Sequence record: NC_014792.1
Strand: one strand, 5' to 3'
Length of the DNA: 64,000 bases
From: Escherichia phage vB_EcoM_VR7
Position 1 is the stretch's first letter, and each line of letters opens with the position of its first letter. The position numbers and the translations under genes were made by a program. This document shows, one piece after another, positions 1,735 to 51,470 of this stretch. The notes under the pieces are model-generated. The model did not search any database. It worked only from the letters and a program-made list of their open reading frames with translations, and had not been told where the DNA came from.

Positions 1735-3309
1735 ATGGCAGGTTTTAATACAATACTAAATTTTCTTAAGCCTTGGGCTAAAGAAGATGAACAAGAATAT
1801 AAGCAACAAGAAAAAAATAATTTAGAGTCAATGACCGGGCCGAAGTTTGATGATGGGGCTCGCGAAATTGAGTCACAAGAACAAAACGTCCCGTATAATG
1901 CATTGATGCAACAGATGTTCGGGAGCAACGAACCTGAAGTAAAAAACACCAGGGAATTAATTGACACATACCGCAACCTACTAAATAATTATGAAGTTGA
2001 TAACGCGGTGCAAGAAATTGTGTCTGATGCTATCGTTTTTGAAGATGGTAAAGATGTCGTAGCTCTTAACCTTGATGCTACTGAATTTAGTCAGAAAATT
2101 AAAGACCGAATTCTCGAAGAATTCTCGGAAGTTAATAACCTCCTTAATTTCGAGCGTAAAGGTTCTGACCACTTTAAACGTTGGTATGTGGATTCTCGAA
2201 TTTTCTTCCACAAAATTATCAACCCTTCAAAACTTAAAGAAGGCGTTCAAGAACTTCGTCGCCTTGACCCAAGACAAATCCAGTTCATCCGTGAAATCGT
2301 TACACGCATGGAAAATGGTACGAAAATTGTTGACGGTTACAGAGAATATTTTGTATACGATACAGGTCATGAAAGTTATTGTGCCGATGGTCGTATATAT
2401 GAAGCGGGTACTAAAATAAAAATTCCTCGTGCGGCAATTGTATATGCACATTCCGGATTACTTGATTGTTGTGGTAAGAATATCATCGGATACCTGCAAC
2501 GAGCAATCAAACCTGCAAACCAATTAAAACTATTAGAAGATGCTTTAGTCATTTATCGTATAACTCGTGCGCCAGACCGCCGAGTCTTTTATATCGATAC
2601 TGGGAATATGCCGTCTCGCAAAGCAGCAGCACATATGCAACATATTATGAACACGATGAAAAACCGTGTCGTATATGATGCAACTACGGGTAAAATCAAA
2701 AACCAACAGCATAATATGTCAATGACAGAAGACTATTGGTTGCAACGTCGCGACGGTAAAGCAGTCACCGAAGTTGATACTCTCCCAGGTGCACAAGGCA
2801 TGTCGGATATGGATGATGTTCGCTGGTTTAAGAACAACCTATATCAGGCTCTCAGAATTCCATTATCTCGTATCCCTAATGACCAGAACAGTGGCGTTAT
2901 GTTTGATGCGGGGGCGACAATTACTCGCGATGAATTGAATTTCTCTAAATGGATTAGACAACTACAGAATAAATTTGAAGAAGTTTTCCTCGACCCGCTT
3001 AAAACCAACCTTATCCTGAAAAAAGTTATTTCAGAAGAGGAATGGGACAAGGAACTAAATAATATTAAAGTTACGTTCAACCGTGATAGCTATTTCACCG
3101 AAATGAAAGATGCAGAAATCATGGAACGCAGAATCAATATGCTAACGATGGCTGAACCGTTTATCGGTAAATATATTTCGCATCAAACTGCAATGAAGGA
3201 TTTCCTCCAGATGTCTGATGAAGAAATTAATCAAGAAGCTAAGCAAATTGAATTGGAGTCCAAAGAGGCTCGTTTCCAAAACCCTGAAGAAGAAGAAGAG
3301 GATTTCTAA
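1735..3309 (+). CDS. 20: Portal vertex protein gp20
   Basis: Full-length similarity to T4 gp20 ([56 protein letters not shown]); 524 aa. Confidence 0.97.
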
Positions 3310-5504: not shown

Positions 5505-7064
5505 ATGAAAAAGAATGCATTAGTTCAAAAATGGTCCGCTCTGCTGGAAAACGAAGCTCTTCCTGAAATCGTTGGTGCTTCTAAACAAGCTATCATCGCT
5601 AAAATCTTTGAAAACCAGGAACAAGATATCCTGACCGCTCCAGAATACCGTGACGAAAAAATCTCCGAAGCATTTGGTTCTTTCCTGACCGAAGCTGAAA
5701 TCGGTGGTGACCATGGTTATGATGCTACCAATATCGCCGCTGGCCAGACCTCTGGTGCAGTAACTCAGATTGGGCCGGCAGTTATGGGTATGGTTCGTCG
5801 TGCTATCCCGCATCTGATTGCGTTTGATATTTGTGGCGTACAGCCTCTGAACAACCCGACTGGCCAGGTATTTGCCCTGCGTGCAGTTTACGGTAAAGAC
5901 CCTGTAGCTGCTGGTGCTAAAGAAGCTTTCCACCCGATGTATGCTCCGAACGCTATGTTCTCCGGTCAGGGTGCTGCTGAAGCTTTCGAACCTCTGGCTG
6001 CAAGCAAAGTTCTTACCGTTGGTAAAATTTATTCTCACTTCTTCGAAGCAACCGGTTCCGCACACTACCAGGCCGTTGAAGCTGTAACCGTTGATGCCGC
6101 CGCTACTGATGCTGCTAAACTTGACGCTGAAGTTACCAAACTGCTCGAAGCTGGTAAACTGGCAGAAATCGCTGAAGGTATGGCTACCTCTATCGCCGAA
6201 CTGCAGGAAGGTTTCAACGGTTCTCAGGATAACCCGTGGAACGAAATGGGCTTCCGCATCGATAAACAAGTTATCGAAGCTAAATCCCGTCAGCTGAAAG
6301 CAAGCTACTCTATCGAACTGGCACAGGACCTGCGCGCTGTTCACGGTATGGACGCTGATGCCGAATTGAGTGGTATTCTGGCTACTGAAATTATGCTGGA
6401 AATCAACCGCGAAGTTATCGATTGGATTAACTACTCCGCACAGGTTGGTAAATCTGGTATGACCAACACCGTTGGCGCTAAAGCTGGTGTGTTCGACTTC
6501 CAGGACCCGATTGATATCCGTGGTGCTCGTTGGGCTGGTGAAAGCTTCAAAGCTTTACTGTTCCAGATTGATAAAGAAGCCGCTGAAATCGCTCGTCAGA
6601 CCGGTCGTGGTGCAGGTAACTTCATCATCGCTTCCCGTAACGTAGTTAACGTACTGGCTGCAGTTGATACCTCTGTATCTTATGCTGCTCAGGGTCTGGG
6701 TAAAGGTTTCAACGTTGACACCACTAAAGCCGTGTTCGCTGGTGTTCTGGGTGGCAAATACCGTGTCTACATCGACCAGTATGCTCGCGCAGATTACTTC
6801 ACCATCGGTTACAAAGGCGCTAACGAAATGGATGCTGGTATCTACTACGCACCATATGTTGCACTGACCCCGCTGCGTGGCTCTGACCCGAAAAACTTCC
6901 AGCCAGTTATGGGCTTCAAAACCCGTTACGGTATCGGTATTAACCCGTTCGCTGACCCGGCAGCTCAGGCTCCGACCAAGCGTATTCAAAACGGCATGCC
7001 GGACATCGTTAACAGCCTCGGCTTGAACGGTTACTTCCGTCGCGTATATGTTAAAGGAATTTAA
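5505..7064 (+). CDS. 23: Major capsid protein gp23
   Basis: 519 aa; very strong codon bias; position and size as T4 gp23; followed by a strong terminator. Confidence 0.97.
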   Translation: MKKNALVQKWSALLENEALPEIVGASKQAIIAKIFENQEQDILTAPEYRDEKISEAFGSFLTEAEIGGDHGYDATNIAAGQTSGAVTQIGPAVMGMVRRAIPHLIAFDICGVQPLNNPTGQVFALRAVYGKDPVAAGAKEAFHPMYAPNAMFSGQGAAEAFEPLAASKVLTVGKIYSHFFEATGSAHYQAVEAVTVDAAATDAAKLDAEVTKLLEAGKLAEIAEGMATSIAELQEGFNGSQDNPWNEMGFRIDKQVIEAKSRQLKASYSIELAQDLRAVHGMDADAELSGILATEIMLEINREVIDWINYSAQVGKSGMTNTVGAKAGVFDFQDPIDIRGARWAGESFKALLFQIDKEAAEIARQTGRGAGNFIIASRNVVNVLAAVDTSVSYAAQGLGKGFNVDTTKAVFAGVLGGKYRVYIDQYARADYFTIGYKGANEMDAGIYYAPYVALTPLRGSDPKNFQPVMGFKTRYGIGINPFADPAAQAPTKRIQNGMPDIVNSLGLNGYFRRVYVKGI

Positions 7065-7466: not shown

Positions 7467-7478
7467 TTTATAAATAAA
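7467..7478 (+). promoter_or_regulatory. Late promoter for gene 24
   Basis: Exact TATAAATA ~25 nt upstream of the gene 24 ATG. Confidence 0.7.
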
Positions 7479-7501: not shown

Positions 7502-8782
7502 ATGGCAAAGATTAACGAACTGCTGCGCGAGTCAACTACTACATCCAGCAACTCATTAGGCCGCCCGAATCTTGTTGCTTTGACCCGCGCTACAACTAAA
7601 TTGATTTACCGCGATATCATCGCTGAACAACGTACTAACCAGCCTGTTGCTGCGCTGTACGGTGTTAAATATATTACTCCTGATAATGAATTCAGTTTCC
7701 AGACTGGTGCTACTTATGGTGGTGAAGTCGGTTCTAAAGACCGTACAACTATTCCAGAATTAGCCACAGCTACTCAGCCTGTTGCTAAAGGCGAATATGT
7801 AAAATATCAAAATATCGTTTACAAAGCTCTGGTGGATAATCCATTTGCAACGACTACAGAAACAGTATTATCTGATGTTCTACAGGAAGGTCTTATTGCA
7901 TCGACTATTCGTTTAGTTCCTGATGCAGCGCATACCGAGAAATTTGAAGCCGGTGATGTTGAAATTAGCAACGCCGTGTTCCAGGTTAATAAATGGAATG
8001 CTCCTGTTAAATCCCGTAAATTGAAAACTGCACTGACTGTTGAACTTGCTCAGGATATGGAAGCAAACGGTTTTAATGCTCCTGCTTTCCTGGAAGACCT
8101 GCTTGCAACTACCATGGCAGACGAAATTAACAAAGATGTTCTGCAGTCTCTGATTACCGTTTCCAAGCGTTATAAAGTCGCTGGCATTTCTGATAAAGGT
8201 TTCATCGATTTGACATATGATTCAGCTCCAGAAGGCGCACGTAAACTGTACGAACTGGTTTGCGAAATGAACTCTGAAATTCAGAAAACTACATCTTACT
8301 CTGGTACATTCGTTGTTGCCTCAAGTCGTGTGGCCGCGATGCTCGCCGGTTCCGGCTGGTTGAAACATAAACCTGAAGATGAACAATGGCTCCCGGAAAC
8401 CGCGTACGGCTATTTGATTAATGGTCTTCCTGTATTCTGTGATGTTAACAGTCCATTGGATTATGTAACCGTTGGCGTTAAAGAAAATTACGGTGGAAAC
8501 GAAGTCGTAGGCTCAATCTTCTATGCTCCTTATACCGAAGGCCTGGACTTAGATGATGAAGAACACGTAGGTGCGTTTAAGGTCATTGTGGACCCAGACA
8601 GCTTGCAGCCATCTATCTCCCTGATGGTTCGTTATGCACTTTCAGCCAACCCTTATACCGTTGCTAAAGACGACAAAGAAGCTCGTATTATCGATGCAAC
8701 TAATATGGATTTAATGGCCGGCCAGAGCAACATGTCTTATCTGCTCGGTGTTAAACTTCCACCAATCATTTATGAGGCGTAA
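7502..8782 (+). CDS. 24: Capsid vertex protein gp24
   Basis: Near-identical N-terminus to T4 gp24 (MAKINELLRESTTT...GRPNL...TRATTKLIY) and conserved blocks (KSRKLKT, VELAQD, EINKDVLQSLITVSKRYKV, ANPYTVAKDDKEARIID). Confidence 0.95.
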   Translation: MAKINELLRESTTTSSNSLGRPNLVALTRATTKLIYRDIIAEQRTNQPVAALYGVKYITPDNEFSFQTGATYGGEVGSKDRTTIPELATATQPVAKGEYVKYQNIVYKALVDNPFATTTETVLSDVLQEGLIASTIRLVPDAAHTEKFEAGDVEISNAVFQVNKWNAPVKSRKLKTALTVELAQDMEANGFNAPAFLEDLLATTMADEINKDVLQSLITVSKRYKVAGISDKGFIDLTYDSAPEGARKLYELVCEMNSEIQKTTSYSGTFVVASSRVAAMLAGSGWLKHKPEDEQWLPETAYGYLINGLPVFCDVNSPLDYVTVGVKENYGGNEVVGSIFYAPYTEGLDLDDEEHVGAFKVIVDPDSLQPSISLMVRYALSANPYTVAKDDKEARIIDATNMDLMAGQSNMSYLLGVKLPPIIYEA

Positions 8783-10066
8783 ATGCAAAAGATTAACGCA
8801 CTAATTCACGAATCAACATTAACGGCGGCCAACCAGGTCGCCCGTCCTAATTTGCTTTCTTATACTCGGGCTACGAATAAACGAATTTTTAAAGCTCTTG
8901 TGGCCGAACAGAAAACTACTCAGCCAGTCGCAGCGCTGTATGGCGTTCGTGTTCTGAACCCAGATGATAAAATGACTTATCTTGGTGGAGCAACATTTGC
9001 AGGCCAGATTGGTATGTTCGAGCGTAAGAATATTCCAGAATTTACGAACAAAGACGAAGCTTATGCAGTCGGCGACATGTTCCAGTTTGAAAGCATTGTA
9101 TTCAAAGCTTTGGAAGCTTCTCCTTTTGCCGGGACCCTCGAAACTGATTTGGGTGAAGTTATTTCTGAAGCCATTGCGGCTGGCCATATAAGAATGATGT
9201 CAGATGCGGCTTTCACTGATAAATTTGAACAAGGACATCCTGAAATTGCTGAAGCCGGTTTCCGTATCGATAAATGGCAGACTGAAGTTAAATCTAGAAA
9301 ACTGAAAACCTCTTTAACTGTTGAGCTTGCGCAGGACCTGGAAGCAAATGGTTTCGATGCAACAGACTTCATTGATAATATCCTCGGTATTCAAATGGCA
9401 GAGGAAATTAATAAGGACGTACTGCAATCTTTAATTACCGTAAGTTCACGTTTTAAAGTCCAGGGTGTTTCCGAAAAAGGTGTACTTAATCTTACTGATG
9501 CCGCTTATGATAATGCTCAGGACCGTGCTCGAACTCTGTATTATTATATGTGCGAAATGAATTCCGCAGTTCAACGTCAGACTTCGTTCGCTGGTACATA
9601 TGCAGTCGCTTCTTCCCGTTGTGCAGCTATTTTAGCCGCTTCTGGCTGGGTTGAGAAAAAGGAAGACCAAGATGAATTGGCCTATGGTGTTCTGAAGAAC
9701 GGTTTGCCACTTTATGCAGATATGAATAGCCCGTGCGATTATGTTATTGTTGGTGTAAATGCTGATATGGGTGAAGGTCAGACGGTCGCATCTTTGTATT
9801 ATGCGCCTTATACGGAAGGTCTTAGTGAAGTTGATGATGAAGGTGACACCTCGGTTGGGGAATTCAAGGTTATTGTTGACCCTGAAAGTTTACAGCCTAC
9901 AGTTGCACTGTTAGCTCGTTATGCACTGACTGCGAACCCTTATACCGTTGCTAAAGACGATAAAGAAGCTCGCATTATTGATGGAGCTGATATGGATAAG
10001 ATGGCTAACCAAAGCCAATTGAGTTCTTATCTTGGTGTTAAACTTCCACCACTGGAAAAAGAATAA
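8783..10066 (+). CDS. Second gp24-like capsid vertex protein (tandem paralog)
   Basis: 427 aa; shares the same conserved blocks as gp24 but is diverged overall (~55% identity by eye); start 1 nt after gene 24 stop; terminator follows. Confidence 0.9.
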   Translation: MQKINALIHESTLTAANQVARPNLLSYTRATNKRIFKALVAEQKTTQPVAALYGVRVLNPDDKMTYLGGATFAGQIGMFERKNIPEFTNKDEAYAVGDMFQFESIVFKALEASPFAGTLETDLGEVISEAIAAGHIRMMSDAAFTDKFEQGHPEIAEAGFRIDKWQTEVKSRKLKTSLTVELAQDLEANGFDATDFIDNILGIQMAEEINKDVLQSLITVSSRFKVQGVSEKGVLNLTDAAYDNAQDRARTLYYYMCEMNSAVQRQTSFAGTYAVASSRCAAILAASGWVEKKEDQDELAYGVLKNGLPLYADMNSPCDYVIVGVNADMGEGQTVASLYYAPYTEGLSEVDDEGDTSVGEFKVIVDPESLQPTVALLARYALTANPYTVAKDDKEARIIDGADMDKMANQSQLSSYLGVKLPPLEKE

Positions 10067-10088
10067 GGGCCTTGCGGCCCTTTTTCTT
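10064..10088. terminator. Rho-independent terminator after the second gene 24 copy
   Basis: gggcc-ttgc-ggccc followed by TTTTTC. Confidence 0.8.
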
Positions 10089-11091
10089 ATGATACTAATT
10101 CAACCCATACTGGTCGCAATACTTCTTTGACCATTTCAATTAATTCTTTCTTAACTTCTGATGGGTTATCGGTTTGTTCTAGTGTAATTCCTTCACGAGC
10201 CGATTCTTCCAGAATATCCTGGACAGTCAAACCCATTACCTTACCAAAATCTTTAGTAGTTACTTTACCAATCTTACTGATAACGTTATTAACGCGATTT
10301 AATGTAACATAACAAGCCAGAATACTAAGCAAATTATTGTCGATTTCAGACAGTTCTACTTTAGCTTTAATAGGTTTATCAGACTTTTTCTTTTCACTGA
10401 ACTTAGAGTTCTTACATTTAATCGCTACGCGATTACCGTTTGGGGCCCATTTAGGATAACATGGCTTTAGAACATAACCTTCGGCGGTAAATGTCTCGCC
10501 TTTAGCTTCAGCTTTCCAAACATGGCTGTTGGCTTCAGTCAATCCGACATTATCAACCATGAAATTATAATCAGGAACAACTGAATCTAAGTCATTTGGC
10601 AATTGAATAAGGTCTTCAAATTTACCACGCCCTAATAACGGGGCAATTTTAAAACCGAATGATTTACAGAATGAATGCATCATGTAATCATCGACATAAG
10701 TCTCATCACCACTTTCGGTCGTAACGATAATATCGAACACATAAAAGTCTTTTGTGCCATAATCAACGCCTTTCTGGATTCCGCCGCCCGCAAACTCACC
10801 AAATACCTGATAAGATACGGCAGCCGCAGTTTCCATGATTTCTTGTACAGCTTTAATAGAATCAGCGTAATTCTTCAATACAATTTCATAACCATAAAAG
10901 TCTTCAGCTGGAAGAATGGGCCCGGTGCGCTTAGCGCACGTTACTGCATCACGTTCTATGATTAAACTAAAGTTGGTTCCATGAATCTTCTCACGTGCTA
11001 CCCATTCACCATCGGTCATACCATGGGTACGGAGTTTTTCAATGAACTTATTGTTGTAGTGGTTTTCAAGACTCGAATATTTCTTAAACAT
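10087..11091 (-). CDS. rnlB: RNA ligase 2 (Rnl2)
   Basis: N-terminus [13 protein letters not shown]...[15 protein letters not shown]...CAKRTGPIL matches T4 Rnl2 including the ligase KxHGxN motif; 334 aa. Confidence 0.93.
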
Positions 11092-11102
11092 AATTAATTA
11101 AC

Positions 11103-11114
11103 CTTATAAATATC
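11103..11114 (+). promoter_or_regulatory. Late-promoter motif (TATAAATA) on the plus strand, ~700 nt upstream of the collagen-like gene
   Basis: Exact TATAAATA; no exact late-promoter octamer lies closer to the collagen-like gene. Confidence 0.4.
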
Positions 11115-11181
11115 ATTATAAATTATACCCTCTATACTTTCTTTCTCTGAAAGGAATTAATCGTATCGGAAGGTCTAGAAC

Positions 11182-11210
11182 CATTATACCACAATTTTAT
11201 TTGAAGCAAA
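11182..11210 (-). promoter_or_regulatory. MotA-dependent middle promoter for rnlB
   Basis: Minus strand reads TGCTTCA (MotA box), 12 nt, TATAAT. Confidence 0.6.
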
Positions 11211-11214
11211 AAGG

Positions 11215-11478
11215 TCAGAATTTTACATACAATGTTGGCTTGTTTTCTTGCCAATTATAATTCCAGGTAAATGATGTAAATTTTTCTGCCCGCAGAAAAT
11301 CAGATATCTTTGCGCGATTTCCTTCTTCATACTCTTTTTCAGAAACTGCCATATTAACAGCATCTTTGCCATTCTCGGCAGCGGCAATAGCCACTTTGCG
11401 AAATATAACAATAAAGTCATTTGCAACTTTATCTTGTGATTCTTTAGCCATTTGGCGTAGTTCTTCTGCGAATGTCAT
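11215..11478 (-). CDS. Hypothetical protein (87 aa)
   Basis: Start overlaps the stop of the upstream 67-aa ORF (4-nt overlap); no recognisable motif. Confidence 0.4.
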   Translation of the reverse strand: MTFAEELRQMAKESQDKVANDFIVIFRKVAIAAAENGKDAVNMAVSEKEYEEGNRAKISDFLRAEKFTSFTWNYNWQENKPTLYVKF

Positions 11479-11678
11479 TTCTTCACCTTTTTGTTAAACA
11501 ACCGCTTGCGGTATACGATTTTCTCTCGTGACTTGAACTTTTCTTTAGCTTGTTCAACATCAACCCAGGCCTTTGCCATTTCTTTAGCGGTCCCGCCTAA
11601 TACCTTGGCGATTTCAATAAATGTCATACCAGTTTCATGCAGGAAATGTACTTTAACCTTATCCATAATGATTCCCAT
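11475..11678 (-). CDS. Small putative helix-turn-helix protein (67 aa)
   Basis: Segment MTFIEIAKVLGGTAKEMAKAWV resembles an HTH; basic C-terminus; first gene of a two-gene minus-strand module. Confidence 0.4.
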   Translation of the reverse strand: MGIIMDKVKVHFLHETGMTFIEIAKVLGGTAKEMAKAWVDVEQAKEKFKSREKIVYRKRLFNKKVKK

Positions 11679-11815
11679 GGTGAGTTAGGGAAGCTATCTT
11701 AACATGGAATTTTTAACTTGTAAACAGGAGTTTTATGCCAGATATTCTTGAACGTAAAGATTTACTTTACAACCGCCACTACCTTAATAAATATTAAATT
11801 AATAACGGAGGATTT

Positions 11816-13099
<1,284 letters not shown>

Positions 13100-13226
13100 T
13101 GCTACTGGGACTACACAACACGCCCACGAAGTAAAATATTTTATAATAGGACGCGACGGTTATACGGAAAATACTTCTGTTGGTGCTACTGTTACTATTG
13201 AAAAACTCTATAACTAAGGACTACAA

Positions 13227-14045
13227 ATGGCTATTACATTAAGTCCATCTTCAATAGACGTAGAATACGGTGACTCTTATACAGTCACTGCTAATATTCC
13301 AGATATTAGCCCTGGTTCATCTATTGTGTATAACTGGACTAAGAATAAAAAATTTATTAGTTCCGGAACTAATGTATTCACTGAAATAGCATCATCGGTA
13401 GAAACATTCAGTATTGCGTGCCGAATTGAAATTATATCACCGGATAAAAACACTGAATATATTTTATCGGATTCTTGCTTGGTTAATGTTAGTAAAAACA
13501 CAAAAGCGGACGGTATAAATTCTCAGCTAGTTTATTCACCAGATGTTCATAAAATAGGTGACCAAGTTATTCTTTCTGTAGAATCCCATCATGTAGACCC
13601 TGGCTATATTAAAGGAGTTATTTGGAAAGATCCATCGGGTAATGTCGTGTCAATTGGTAAAGAATATACGCATAAGATTAAGACGACAGAAGATGTTGTA
13701 GATGTAAAAATAGATTTGGCTTCTGAAAATTATGCCTATTACAATAAAACACTTCAAATTGTTCTTAAAGCTGTTGAAGAAGATAATTCGGAGTGTAGTG
13801 TAAGATATATTCATCCTTTAGACCACAGGGATTCAGGATACATCTGGATGGGTTGGTGGGTTATGGACGAAATTGAAAGGGCGACGGTAGAAGGATTAAA
13901 TTGGAAAGCGCCGGACGGTACTGACCTGAAGTATAAGTGTGACTTGAAAACTCTTTCTATAATGCTTGACTTATATAATAATGTTGAAGTACAAGAATCA
14001 AGGAATGGTTATATTCTAAACAGGGCAGATTTACTTCCAAAATAA
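13227..14045 (+). CDS. Hoc-like protein paralog (Ig-like domains plus Hoc-type C-terminal capsid-binding domain)
   Basis: C-terminus (YIHPLDHRDSGYIWMGWWVMDEIERA...YNNVEVQESRNGYILNRADL) parallels the C-terminus of the canonical Hoc here and in T4 (YVHPLP..SAYIWCGWWVMDEIQK...YPEVDVQESRNGYIIH). Confidence 0.8.
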   Translation: MAITLSPSSIDVEYGDSYTVTANIPDISPGSSIVYNWTKNKKFISSGTNVFTEIASSVETFSIACRIEIISPDKNTEYILSDSCLVNVSKNTKADGINSQLVYSPDVHKIGDQVILSVESHHVDPGYIKGVIWKDPSGNVVSIGKEYTHKIKTTEDVVDVKIDLASENYAYYNKTLQIVLKAVEEDNSECSVRYIHPLDHRDSGYIWMGWWVMDEIERATVEGLNWKAPDGTDLKYKCDLKTLSIMLDLYNNVEVQESRNGYILNRADLLPK

Positions 14046-14068
14046 AAAAGGGCCGCAAGGCCCTTTAT
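14043..14068. terminator. Bidirectional terminator between the Hoc-like paralog and hoc
   Basis: gggcc-gcaa-ggccc with an A-run on one side and a T-run on the other, between convergent genes. Confidence 0.8.
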
Positions 14069-14070
14069 CA

Positions 14071-15174
14071 TTAATAGACGTAATCGTATATAATACCAGC
14101 TTCCAATGCCGAACGGTGGACGATACGACCGTTACGAGATTCCTGTACATCAACTTCCGGGTAATCACTAAGCATTTTGGCTAATACCGCCAGATGACAA
14201 TAATATGGTGTATCCTCTTTAGTGGCTTTTTTCCAATCTGTACTTTCAGATGTTAATTTCTGAATAGCGTCCATAACCCACCAGCCACACCAAATATACG
14301 CAGTATTACGGACAGGAAGTGGATGTACATAAATTAAAGGGCATTCTTCTGGAATAACAGGCTCTGCTTCTTCCACCGTAACAGACTTATTACCTGATTT
14401 AACTGAATTTGTAAAGCCTGTTTGCGATGCGGTAACTTCACAAGTATATGACTTCAAGCCTTCAGTGGATTCCGTTATTGCTCTTGTTGCTTCTGTTGAG
14501 TTGTCGTCCCATTTATATGCAAGAGTAGCACCAGGGATAGCAGGAGACACAGAAGCTGTCAAATTGAATGGAACATCAACCGTCGCAGTAGACGGGCCTG
14601 AAATCTCAACAGTGAACTCAGGAAATGTATTGTTTTCGACCGTAACAACTACTGCCTCAGGATTAATAACTTGATTGTCATAATCTGCAGCAGAAACGGT
14701 AATTTGACAAGTTAAAGAAACTGGTCCTGCGACAGTAGCAGTACGAGTAATATCTTTAGTAATTTCACCGGTAGACCACAAATATGCTATTGTAGCTCCA
14801 CCAGGTTCACCTGTTACGTCGGCCGAAGCGTTATATTCCTCGCCAACTTTAACGGTTGGAGTGGAAGTTGTTAATGTTGCAGTTGCAGACATAGTCTTGT
14901 TATTAACTGTAATAGTTGTTTGAGCCTCTGCCGTTTCAGGCTCTCCTTCTTCCGGCGTTGTGGTGGCAACAACTTTAATTACTTTTGAACCTGCTGGGCC
15001 AGCTGCAATATAATCCATAGTAGCAATAACAGAAGCTTGTGGAACATCATCAACGGTCCATACAAAAGATTCGGTACCAGCGACAGCGGCTCCAGCTCCA
15101 GTGGCAGTAAAATTAGTTGTTGCACCTATAACCGCTGTAGGTGTTAAAGGGGCAATTGATACAGTATAAGCCAT
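14071..15174 (-). CDS. hoc: Hoc, highly immunogenic outer capsid protein
   Basis: Ig-like repeats plus C-terminal capsid-binding domain near-identical to T4 Hoc; start moved to internal ATG (MAYTVSIAP..., GGAG SD). Confidence 0.9.
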   Translation of the reverse strand: MAYTVSIAPLTPTAVIGATTNFTATGAGAAVAGTESFVWTVDDVPQASVIATMDYIAAGPAGSKVIKVVATTTPEEGEPETAEAQTTITVNNKTMSATATLTTSTPTVKVGEEYNASADVTGEPGGATIAYLWSTGEITKDITRTATVAGPVSLTCQITVSAADYDNQVINPEAVVVTVENNTFPEFTVEISGPSTATVDVPFNLTASVSPAIPGATLAYKWDDNSTEATRAITESTEGLKSYTCEVTASQTGFTNSVKSGNKSVTVEEAEPVIPEECPLIYVHPLPVRNTAYIWCGWWVMDAIQKLTSESTDWKKATKEDTPYYCHLAVLAKMLSDYPEVDVQESRNGRIVHRSALEAGIIYDYVY

Positions 15175-15201: not shown

Positions 15202-15882
15202 TTAGTTTAAACGAATAAAAGATGAGTTACGTGTTTCACGAATAAGAATGGAACCGTCACGATTGATATAGTAAATCAAACTAAACAATGTTTGGTGTGC
15301 GCTTGCATGAGTAAAAGAAGTAGGGCGTTCTTTCCAGTCCGGGGTCTCTTTAATCCACTGGTAAATCCACCAAGGGAGAGTACAATATCCAGGAGCTTTG
15401 CCCAGCATAAGCAGATTGGGGCTAAAATTTTTAGGCAGTGTAAATTTAGGAGTTTCAGCTTCGATGATTTGAGCGACAGCTTCTTCAAAGTCTTCGGAAA
15501 CAAACGGCACTTCAATTTCAACGAGTTTAACTTCTGATTCAGGAACAACTGCCTGGGTAACTTCGACTACTTCAACGGGTGCTTCTGGAGCATCAAACAA
15601 AAGAACAGCTTCAGGTTTAGCTGATTCTTCACCTTCAAACTTACTACCTGATAATTCATCATCAGCATTAATAAGGTCGGTGATGCTTAAGCCTTCGTTA
15701 TCGTCCGGCATAGGCATGTCAGCAAATGCTTTAAGTCCTGCTTCCAGGTCAATCAACATATTATTGAAAGTTTTTGTTTTCTTAACATCAACACCAAGCG
15801 ATGATGCATATTCAGCTAATTTTTCTTTGGCTTCTTTTTTCTCGAGGACACGAATTTCCTCAATATAGTTCTTATCAATCAT
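15202..15882 (-). CDS. inh: Inh-like protein (inhibitor of prohead protease)
   Basis: 226 aa, same size and position (between hoc and uvsW) as T4 inh; sequence not independently recalled. Confidence 0.6.
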   Translation of the reverse strand: MIDKNYIEEIRVLEKKEAKEKLAEYASSLGVDVKKTKTFNNMLIDLEAGLKAFADMPMPDDNEGLSITDLINADDELSGSKFEGEESAKPEAVLLFDAPEAPVEVVEVTQAVVPESEVKLVEIEVPFVSEDFEEAVAQIIEAETPKFTLPKNFSPNLLMLGKAPGYCTLPWWIYQWIKETPDWKERPTSFTHASAHQTLFSLIYYINRDGSILIRETRNSSFIRLN

Positions 15883-15897
15883 AATGAACCTCGGTTA

Positions 15898-15910
15898 TTG
15901 TATAAATATA
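15898..15910 (+). promoter_or_regulatory. Late promoter for uvsW
   Basis: Exact TATAAATA ~30 nt upstream of the uvsW ATG. Confidence 0.65.
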
Positions 15911-15936
15911 GATATATTTATTACCTTGGAATCATC

Positions 15937-19543: not shown

Positions 19544-19560
19544 CTGTATTTATAAATATC
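19544..19560. promoter_or_regulatory. Overlapping divergent late promoters for genes 26 (minus) and 51 (plus)
   Basis: Sequence TATTTATAAATA holds TATAAATA on both strands, offset by 4 nt. Confidence 0.65.
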
Positions 19561-37123: not shown

Positions 37124-37370
37124 AATGCTCTTCCAGGAAGTCCAGGAGGGCCGTGGCGGAGGTAAAGATACCACCATCAACCTTGTCTTCATCTTGATAG
37201 TCCATCACATCCAGACCGATACGTCCATCAGTTAGCGGCCATACGCTGAAAAAGTATTCATAACCTTTTTCAATTTCTTCAATCTTGCGAAAAATCTTTT
37301 CGATATTGTTCATAGGTTTCCACATCTCTACTACTTGAGTATAAATATAGTATATCACCAAAGAGGACAT
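37113..37370 (-). CDS. Hypothetical protein (85 aa or shorter)
   Basis: ORF; start uncertain. Confidence 0.3.
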   Translation of the reverse strand: MSSLVIYYIYTQVVEMWKPMNNIEKIFRKIEEIEKGYEYFFSVWPLTDGRIGLDVMDYQDEDKVDGGIFTSATALLDFLEEHYVR

Positions 37371-37373
37371 ACA

Positions 37374-39213
<1,840 letters not shown>

Positions 39214-50921: not shown

Positions 50922-51470
50922 TTATCTGGGTTTGAGTAACGGCGCTTTAGCAGAATCACTAAGAGTTTTTATCACTTCAATACCTCTGATATTATTTATT
51001 TTATCATCTTTTTCATAAAAGCGATTTAAGCCTTCAGAAATTGATTTCTTATGCTCCGTGCTTTTTGGAACATCCTTTTGTGCTTCCGAAATACATTGAT
51101 TTGTGTATATGGAATTTTTCATTCCATATCTTGGTGCGCGTTCACCGGCACCACCAAATGCACCATGAGCTGTTGCTTTATTAAAGAATAGCGGTGATTT
51201 TGGTATATTATAATGAGAGTGGTACCACTCTTCCTCGTCCAAAACATCTTCACAGACATCGAGTATTTTAACTGTCGGCTTTTCGAGTTGAATAGCTTCA
51301 AGAAAATCAGCTTGCTCACATGAGGACCAATATTCTCTTCTTGAAGTATATTTCAAATCAATTATAACACCATTTTCAAAAGCGCAATTATGCTTTGACC
51401 CAATGTAAAAATAAGGAGGTGTTTTATTTTTCAGACGAGTTTCAAATGTAAACCAATATACAACATTCAA
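50922..51470 (-). CDS. Putative GIY-YIG-type homing endonuclease (SegG-like position next to gene 32)
   Basis: N-terminal VVYWFTFETRLKNKTPPYFYIGSKHN resembles a degenerate GIY...YIG motif; sits between genes 59 and 32 where T4 has segG. Confidence 0.45.
   Translation of the reverse strand: MNVVYWFTFETRLKNKTPPYFYIGSKHNCAFENGVIIDLKYTSRREYWSSCEQADFLEAIQLEKPTVKILDVCEDVLDEEEWYHSHYNIPKSPLFFNKATAHGAFGGAGERAPRYGMKNSIYTNQCISEAQKDVPKSTEHKKSISEGLNRFYEKDDKINNIRGIEVIKTLSDSAKAPLLKPR

Follow-up and report, generated by a model that had tools for sequence, protein, structure and literature searches.

Sequence, position, conservation and published promoter statistics together suggest that the collagen-like and Hoc-like genes of Escherichia phage vB_EcoM_VR7 are transcribed late from a promoter of their own directly ahead of the first gene, and that the exact late box lying farther upstream belongs instead to the neighboring gene rnlB, where it would act as an antisense late promoter, with possible read-through into the two genes. 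This joint reading seems to us rather probable, though far from assured.

The window, by which we mean the whole stretch of DNA that was analyzed, is 64,000 nt long. The records nearest to the locus are those of Escherichia phages VR5 (90% identity over the region), VR25 and VR26, and the source phage is a T4-like coliphage of the VR5/VR25 (Dhakavirus/Gaprivervirus) group. The genes of the locus, together with one terminator, are the following.

7502-8782, plus strand: gp24 paralogue 1
8783-10066, plus strand: gp24 paralogue 2
10087-11091, minus strand: rnlB (RNA ligase 2)
11215-11478, minus strand: 24.2-like early gene (phrog_2416; VR25 annotation)
11475-11678, minus strand: 24.3-like early gene (DUF2774)
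11816-13099, plus strand: collagen-like gene (Pfam Collagen; phrog_5073, labelled 'tail fiber protein')
13227-14045, plus strand: Hoc-like head decoration gene, second gene of the late cassette (phrog_1149)
14047-14066: GC-rich hairpin separating the Hoc-like gene from hoc; as a terminator it is strong on the minus strand (hoc) and weaker on the plus strand (cassette)
14071-15174, minus strand: hoc
15202-15882, minus strand: inh
from 15937, plus strand: uvsW

The corresponding gene order in T4 is 24, rnlB, 24.2, 24.3, hoc, inh, and because T4 has no plus-strand genes between 24.3 and hoc, we interpret the collagen-like and Hoc-like pair as a cassette inserted between these two genes. The VR7 collagen-like gene has a frameshift near its 3' end relative to that of VR5. 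An IMG/VR search with the Hoc-like protein for further cassette homologues returned VR5 only, and tblastn against phage records added Kosakonia phage 305.

T4 late promoters work with the gp55 sigma factor, the gp33 co-activator and the gp45 sliding clamp, and carry TATAAATA at positions -13 to -6. The window holds 19 exact copies of this motif against 4.8 expected, a number that none of 100 shuffles reached. Thirteen of them lie 17-63 nt 5' of a called start on the same strand (start proximity was defined as 10-70 nt upstream, with starts from a crude gene caller), and three others, at 1037, 33868 and 37340, are probably near uncalled or alternative starts, which puts the copies that are not promoter-proximal at 3-6 of 19. 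The copies other than the one at 11105, 18 in number, behave as T4 late promoters do. Between the gp24 promoter at 7469 and the uvsW promoter at 15901, the plus strand has no exact copy other than the one at 11105, and the preliminary description was thus correct in calling it the only one upstream of the cassette. It is also the only intergenic exact copy without a nearby gene on its own strand, the next such gene being 703 nt off. Two opposite-strand genes separate the box from this gene; they are the two small minus-strand ORFs described earlier, now recognized as 24.2-like and 24.3-like.

Directly before the collagen-like gene there is, as had also been noted, only a box with one mismatch. 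It is accompanied by the following elements.

11696-11724, minus strand: candidate early sigma-70 promoter of 24.3 and 24.2 (TTTACA, 17 nt, TG-n-TAAGAT)
11736-11798, plus strand: 20-codon mini-ORF (MPDILERKDLLYNRHYLNKY) with an AGGAG Shine-Dalgarno sequence
11744-11815, plus strand: cassette-specific upstream segment with the proximal box and the Shine-Dalgarno sequence
11786-11793, plus strand: proximal box AATAAATA (late promoter, A(-13) variant; start predicted near 11799)

The proximal box stands 22 nt ahead of the collagen-like ATG (11816), a spacing within the range of late boxes, and the GGAGG Shine-Dalgarno sequence of the gene occupies 11807-11811. The 10 nt 3' of the box, TTAAATTAAT, are 100% A+T; an A+T-rich segment directly 3' of the box is a criterion for T4 late promoters (PMC2988020). 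Geiduschek and Kassavetis listed 50 T4 late promoter sites, 32 of them perfect (PMC2988020), and A in place of T at -13 is the commonest variant, found at 9 of the 50 (PMC2988020). In several T4-like genomes, Nolan et al. described position -13 as poorly conserved, being A or T (PMC1524935). The very same AATAAATA precedes inh in both T4 and VR7, in the context gtAATAAATAtatctatatttatac in T4 and in the same context in VR7. Among the 24 one-mismatch variants of the late box, AATAAATA is the only one enriched 10-70 nt 5' of starts in the window (3 of 6 copies vs a background of 4%). The third of these start-near copies, at 50993 on the minus strand, is inside a 182-aa ORF and before a doubtful 53-aa ORF, and was given no weight.

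The proximal box appears to have arrived with the cassette. Similarity to cassette-less relatives (VR20, SP18, P896 and many others) stops at 11743, and the box is located 43 nt into DNA that is found only with the cassette. The segment 11744-11815 is missing from cassette-less phages and also from KIT01 and JS10; homology to KIT01 restarts at 11813, and the site of the VR7 mini-ORF is where the collagen-like gene begins in both KIT01 and JS10. The candidate sigma-70 promoter at 11696-11724, which is back-to-back with the cassette, is kept in sequence in all relatives. In VR5, VR25, VR26 and ESCO10, the proximal box and the next 22 nt are unchanged, bar one A/G difference in the Shine-Dalgarno sequence, and the bases just 5' of the box vary among the same four phages. 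More distant cassettes, those of Kosakonia phage 305 and of a metagenomic phage (L032), have CATAAATA 31-33 nt before their first gene.

Because A(-13) is common, inh provides a precedent, the spacing is appropriate, the sequence is conserved and the box lies in cassette-borne DNA, the cassette would not need the distal box. On present knowledge, AATAAATA would be an adequate late promoter, and we infer from its sequence, position and conservation and from the published promoter statistics that it is the probable main driver of late cassette expression, with a predicted start at about 11799 and a short leader containing GGAGG. The premise that a one-mismatch box is inadequate, and that the cassette must rely on 11105, is not supported; to look for the nearest promoter 700 nt off is to misread the promoter grammar.

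The proximal region can also be read as a sigma-70-type promoter that overlaps the box and would make the cassette early or middle rather than late, with TTTACA (11766-11771), 18 nt and AATATT (11790-11795) giving 9 of 12 consensus matches. However, pairs with 9 of 12 matches occur at background frequency (21 found vs 16.9 expected), the -10 is poor, and the cassette encodes virion decoration proteins, which are late in T4. Moreover, the ATAAATA core is kept in Kosakonia phage 305 and L032, where the flanks differ. We therefore consider it very unlikely that the cassette is driven in this manner.

The distal box has a different setting, in the 5' leader of rnlB, where three elements are of importance.

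11105-11112, plus strand: distal box TATAAATA, an exact match to the late promoter (start predicted near 11118, A)
11117-11124, plus strand: second box in tandem, TATAAATT, mismatched only at its last position
11208-11183, minus strand: putative rnlB middle promoter of the MotA-dependent type (start predicted near 11176)

The box is antisense to the leader, 13 nt from the rnlB start codon in a spacer of 123 bp, and the 10 nt 3' of it are 90% A+T. An L020-type leader and Kosakonia phage 305 share the tandem TATAAATA-tcat-TATAAATT. No plus-strand late gene lies a short leader's distance 3' of the box. A hidden plus-strand gene at this place was considered and rejected, the antisense ORFs varying in length, frame and position between lineages. 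Replacement of TATAAATA by TACAAATA is an example of a change that would abolish the distal box and leave the rnlB coding sequence and Shine-Dalgarno sequence intact.

MotA boxes have the consensus (a/t)(a/t)(a/t)TGCTT(t/c)A and are positioned 11-13 bp upstream of a sigma-70 -10 element. This arrangement is found on the minus strand at 11208-11183, where tttTGCTTCA (MotA box TGCTTCA at 11208-11202) is followed by 13 nt and TATAAT (11188-11183); in 10 of 10 aligned divergent leaders the TGCTT core does not vary and the -10 is kept. The predicted rnlB leader is then about 85 nt long (11092-11176) and has the distal box on its opposite strand. The late box and the MotA-type promoter point towards one another, and their predicted starts, 11118 and 11176, are about 59 bp apart.

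In VR7 alone, the distal box could be a chance product of an A+T-rich spacer, functionless on both strands: about 4.8 copies are expected in the window, 3-6 of the 19 copies found are away from promoter positions, and about 11% of dinucleotide shuffles of this 123-bp spacer yield the motif, which is not significant. We place the box above chance because it is conserved across phage lineages, not on account of the single spacer. The comparison set comprised 37 rnlB loci from viral contigs, with RnlB 45-84% identical to that of VR7. Fourteen loci resemble T4 in that a gap of about 1-31 nt separates rnlB from the gene before it, and none of the 14 has the box. Where rnlB has both a leader and a TGCTT MotA box, 22 distinct leader sequences were obtained (VR7 and one JS10 leader counted), and 19 of these have TATTTATA or TATTTATT on the rnlB strand, which corresponds to TATAAATA or AATAAATA on the other strand. 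The L035 leader has TATTTATG on the rnlB strand, that is, CATAAATA on the other.

Written as [T/A]ATAAATA, the box is antisense in 21 of 25 rnlB leaders and in 10 of the 11 divergent lineages that have an rnlB leader, against 0.58 expected from dinucleotide shuffles, a test that overstates independence, the lineages being related by descent. The control in sense orientation gave 0 of 11 lineages. The most widely shared 8-mer of the rnlB leaders is TATTTATA itself (9 of 11 lineages), and its 7-mer core is present in all 11. This difference between the two orientations, together with retention of the box where its flanks and position change, leaves pure chance hardly credible.

The manner in which the box varies is informative. 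Its variants are A (the VR5/JS98 lineage) and C (L035), both at -13 and nowhere else, and -13 is where genuine late promoters tolerate change. In the VR7, VR5, L020 and L034 types the box abuts the Shine-Dalgarno sequence; in L021, L031, L032, L036 and L043 it follows the -10 by about 12 nt. The two positions flank a conserved GGTAAGAAGA anchor on opposite sides, a shift of about 50 nt relative to both the Shine-Dalgarno sequence and the anchor. In JS10 the whole leader, including the box, precedes ORF0174, a gene inserted ahead of rnlB. The box is kept in cassette-less phages, namely VR20, P896, JS98 and most metagenomic loci. T4 has no rnlB leader and no plus-strand box from gene 24 to a box at locus position 6023; the latter is upstream of segE and uvsW. 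T4 was accordingly rejected as an experimental proxy, the rnlB leader and the distal box both being missing there.

Since cassette-less phages keep the box and leaderless rnlB genes are without it, the primary role of the distal box appears to lie with rnlB and its middle promoter and not with the cassette. Furthermore, since the box is conserved, shifts in position and varies only at -13, as a self-contained 8-bp gp55 promoter should, a conserved antisense late promoter is the best reading of it, and we think it fairly likely that such a promoter accompanies rnlB in many T4-like genera. Published surveys report late promoters solely 5' of late genes (PMC1524935), which counts against this reading. 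In the literature on antisense late promoters or rnlB promoters, we found nothing specific.

The main alternative to the antisense late promoter is that UAUUUAUA functions on the sense strand, as an RNA element of the rnlB leader, and that its match to the late box is coincidental and gives no late start. The types considered were a protein-binding or RNase E site, a translation enhancer and a hairpin-loop signal. In agreement with such a role, the box occurs strictly where rnlB has a leader; in L031, L032, L036 and L043 it occupies the loop of a hairpin near the 5' end, with stems that vary from lineage to lineage, and other leaders place it just 5' of the Shine-Dalgarno sequence, where A+U-rich enhancers act. 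The DNA flanking the box in L031, L032, L036 and L043 is G+C-rich, which is less typical of late promoters. On the other hand, conservation covers exactly the 8 bp of the late box, with variants confined to -13, and neither a translation enhancer nor a RegA operator would readily accommodate a shift of about 50 nt. The RegA operator is an unstructured A+U-rich site that overlaps or abuts the AUG, with a 5' poly(A) tract (PMC3014915); it was rejected for UAUUUAUA, which is 40-60 nt 5' of the AUG in five lineages and, in four of these, in a hairpin loop. The element matches no Rfam family, the scan giving just a spurious sub-threshold snoRNA match inside the collagen-like gene; the leader folds no better than its shuffles (z from -1.8 to +0.9, single-sequence), and no other early leader in the window has the element. 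We regard a sense-strand RNA role as unlikely, although it deserves to be kept in mind.

If the distal box is an antisense late promoter, it would belong to the rnlB middle-promoter/leader module and would most likely fire late. The RNA started there would be antisense to the 5' part of the rnlB leader, the middle promoter, 24.2 and 24.3, and initiation by gp55-RNA polymerase at the box would oppose the middle promoter once active. Through promoter occlusion, collision of polymerases or formation of RNA duplexes, this would probably damp rnlB and the early module late in infection, and the distal box may possibly shut rnlB off at this stage.

Some of this antisense transcription may also continue into the cassette and provide it with a second mRNA, one that has a long leader. 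The search for intrinsic terminators between 11118 and 11816 gave one weak hairpin (11456-11470, with a 5-bp stem and a poor tail), and in the long transcript no stable fold covers the Shine-Dalgarno sequence or the AUG (z from +0.5 to +1.0). Because the terminator is weak and no fold would hide the ribosome-binding site, read-through into the cassette is possible. The antisense RNA of about 700 nt is untranslated and contains C>G stretches, with C/G of about 2 at 11278-11340 and 11498-11570; it is therefore a plausible Rho substrate, and the read-through may be small. A late antisense transcript with some read-through into the cassette is plausible on these grounds. When the box was compared with the occurrence of a bidirectional hoc terminator, most hairpins proved to be flanked on either side by A-runs and T-runs, in loci with the box and in loci without it.

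The same observations bear on the stronger proposal that the distal TATAAATA is the principal late promoter of the cassette, the proximal AATAAATA being inactive and cassette expression being coupled to antisense RNA against 24.2/24.3. The distal box has the exact consensus, no credible intrinsic terminator precedes 11816, no fold hides the ribosome-binding site in long transcripts, and the late-type genes of KIT01, JS10 and L034 have the distal box alone. However, late promoters with A(-13) are normal, inh having this variant in T4 as well as in VR7; the proximal box is conserved, correctly spaced and brought by cassette DNA; most cassette-less phages have the distal box; and the long untranslated C>G leader would be exposed to Rho. 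We judge this proposal improbable. What endures of the preliminary description is the distal box itself, which is real, conserved and antisense in orientation to 24.2/24.3; its standing as the required promoter of the cassette is not supported.

In KIT01 and JS10, the collagen-like genes start about 70 nt from 24.3 and have no nearby late box within one mismatch, and a metagenomic phage (L034) has an opposite-strand gene of 539 aa that is likewise without a proximal box. In these three phages the box of the rnlB/ORF0174 leader, 375-1016 nt upstream, is the only suitably oriented one, and it would be the only recognizable late promoter for their opposite-strand late genes. These three relatives lend real, if limited, weight to the earlier idea. 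We speculate that the rnlB module of many T4-like phages may be portable, with MotA middle and gp55 late promoters facing each other across 20-90 bp, the late one serving as an off-switch for rnlB, 24.2 and 24.3 and being repeatedly co-opted as the sole or auxiliary promoter of capsid-decoration cassettes (collagen-like, Hoc-like) inserted downstream in opposite orientation. This broader picture is possible but, in our opinion, doubtful.

As predicted promoters, both boxes are new instances of known elements, namely T4-type late promoters and late antisense transcription. Similar to T4 late promoters, the VR7 boxes represent the exact consensus (distal) and the commonest variant (proximal), both are A+T-rich downstream, and the proximal box is at a typical distance from a virion gene; unlike them, the distal box has no adjoining late gene and points into an early/middle unit, and both starts are predicted. 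In coliphage 186, pR and pL form a face-to-face promoter pair that acts by transcriptional interference. The VR7 promoters likewise face each other across about 59 bp and are of different temporal class, but interference between them is purely inferred, and the sigma factors differ (sigma-70/MotA/AsiA vs gp55). The sense and antisense transcription of T4 gene 32 (Belin et al.) is comparable in that a late promoter directed against early/middle genes yields late antisense RNA; the rnlB-leader box differs in being conserved in one leader across genera and in facing a MotA-type promoter at 20-90 bp. T4 e and I-TevI have dual transcripts: in the long early ones the ribosome-binding site is sequestered, and translation is confined to those started at the proximal late promoter (PMC3014915). 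The VR7 cassette gene would similarly be reachable by long upstream and short late transcripts, but its long form has no structure over the Shine-Dalgarno sequence and AUG (z = +0.5). The late box of the rnlB leader has so far been unstudied because T4 itself is without it.

The interest of these findings is moderate to low unless the face-to-face switch proves to operate. If the portable module exists, it would couple the expression of decoration genes to antisense silencing of the early module. For annotation, T4-like late genes that have only an N(-13) variant box should not be called promoter-less, and the collagen-like and Hoc-like decoration cassette appears to bring its own promoter. 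The rnlB-leader box may offer a compact natural test case of how opposing promoters of different temporal classes end middle-gene expression, and it bears on how newly inserted late cassettes gain transcription, for which KIT01 and JS10 would serve as natural experiments.

RnlB (RNA ligase 2; gene at 10087-11091, minus strand) and the DNA ahead of its gene differ in their similarity to other phages. The protein shares 83-84% identity with the RnlB of three viral-contig loci, in which rnlB starts 9 nt after the preceding gene in a T4-like arrangement, and only 70-74% identity with the RnlB proteins of VR5, VR25 and VR20. Comparison of the region 10087-11112 revealed near-identity with VR25 in the DNA beyond the distal late box (11105-11112, plus strand), on its far side from rnlB. 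The stretch from the start codon of rnlB to the late box therefore contains a recombination junction.

Lineages also differ directly upstream of the cassette of collagen-like and Hoc-like genes, where the proximal late box (11786-11793, plus strand) is overlapped by a short reading frame:

11736-11798, plus strand: 20-codon mini-ORF with an AGGAG Shine-Dalgarno sequence, directly 5' of the collagen-like gene

A 9-codon counterpart (MPGNVCTVP) is present in cassette-less phages, and in KIT01 and JS10 the ATG position of the mini-ORF is the start of the collagen-like gene itself; the promoter-bearing segment of approximately 70 nt is therefore an indel between lineages.

At the other end of the collagen-like gene (11816-13099), a T-run at 13042-13045 reads TTTT in the window and TTT in VR5. 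The extra T shifts the frame, so that the VR5-type C-terminal domain of the collagen-like protein lacks its final ~64 residues, which give way to an 18-residue out-of-frame tail. The VR5-type end is retained in another frame:

13029-13217: ORF with the VR5-type collagen-like C-terminus, ending 10 nt 5' of the Hoc-like gene

The extra T could be a sequencing error, a genuine inactivating mutation or a slippery site.

A collagen-like and Hoc-like cassette in the same orientation was also observed in Kosakonia phage 305 (Kanagawavirus; L047, 2544-5197), where ~360 nt of non-coding DNA separates it from inh. This phage apparently lacks an intact canonical hoc, which may have been replaced by the Hoc-like gene.

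Elsewhere in the window, the vertex protein gp24 is represented by two tandem paralogues (7502-10066; 426 and 427 aa) in the place of a single copy in T4; in VR5 and VR25 the same pair carries the annotation 'capsid vertex proteins I and II'. Two divergent late-box pairs lie nearly back to back. At 15901-15922, 6 bp separate the uvsW box TATAAATA (plus strand) from the inh box AATAAATA (minus strand), and at 19547-19558 two overlapping copies of TATAAATA occur, one on each strand. T4 shares the sequence context of the inh box and of the plus-strand box facing it; there the latter is upstream of segE, followed by uvsW. A further exact late box (37340-37347, plus strand) lies where minus-strand genes leave a gap (37193-37717), with a Shine-Dalgarno sequence and an ATG after it (tagtatatcaccaaagaggacatacaATG); this layout suggests a small plus-strand late gene overlooked by the crude gene caller.

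The layout of the rnlB leader is conserved across genera (11092-11211 in the window; about 2880-3003 in the compared loci L012-L045): the MotA box is followed by one or two -10-like hexamers, next by the conserved anchor GGTAAGAAGA, frequently within a hairpin, and finally by a Shine-Dalgarno sequence. The 8-mer of the antisense late box is displayed in the loop of a 5'-terminal hairpin in L031, L032, L036 and L043, with lineage-specific stems. JS10 carries an insertion between the conserved leader and rnlB:

L006 (JS10), 2314-2798: EpJS10_0174, a 122-aa ORF

In this phage a different gene now follows the middle promoter with its leader and antisense box, and the leader module therefore acts as a portable unit.
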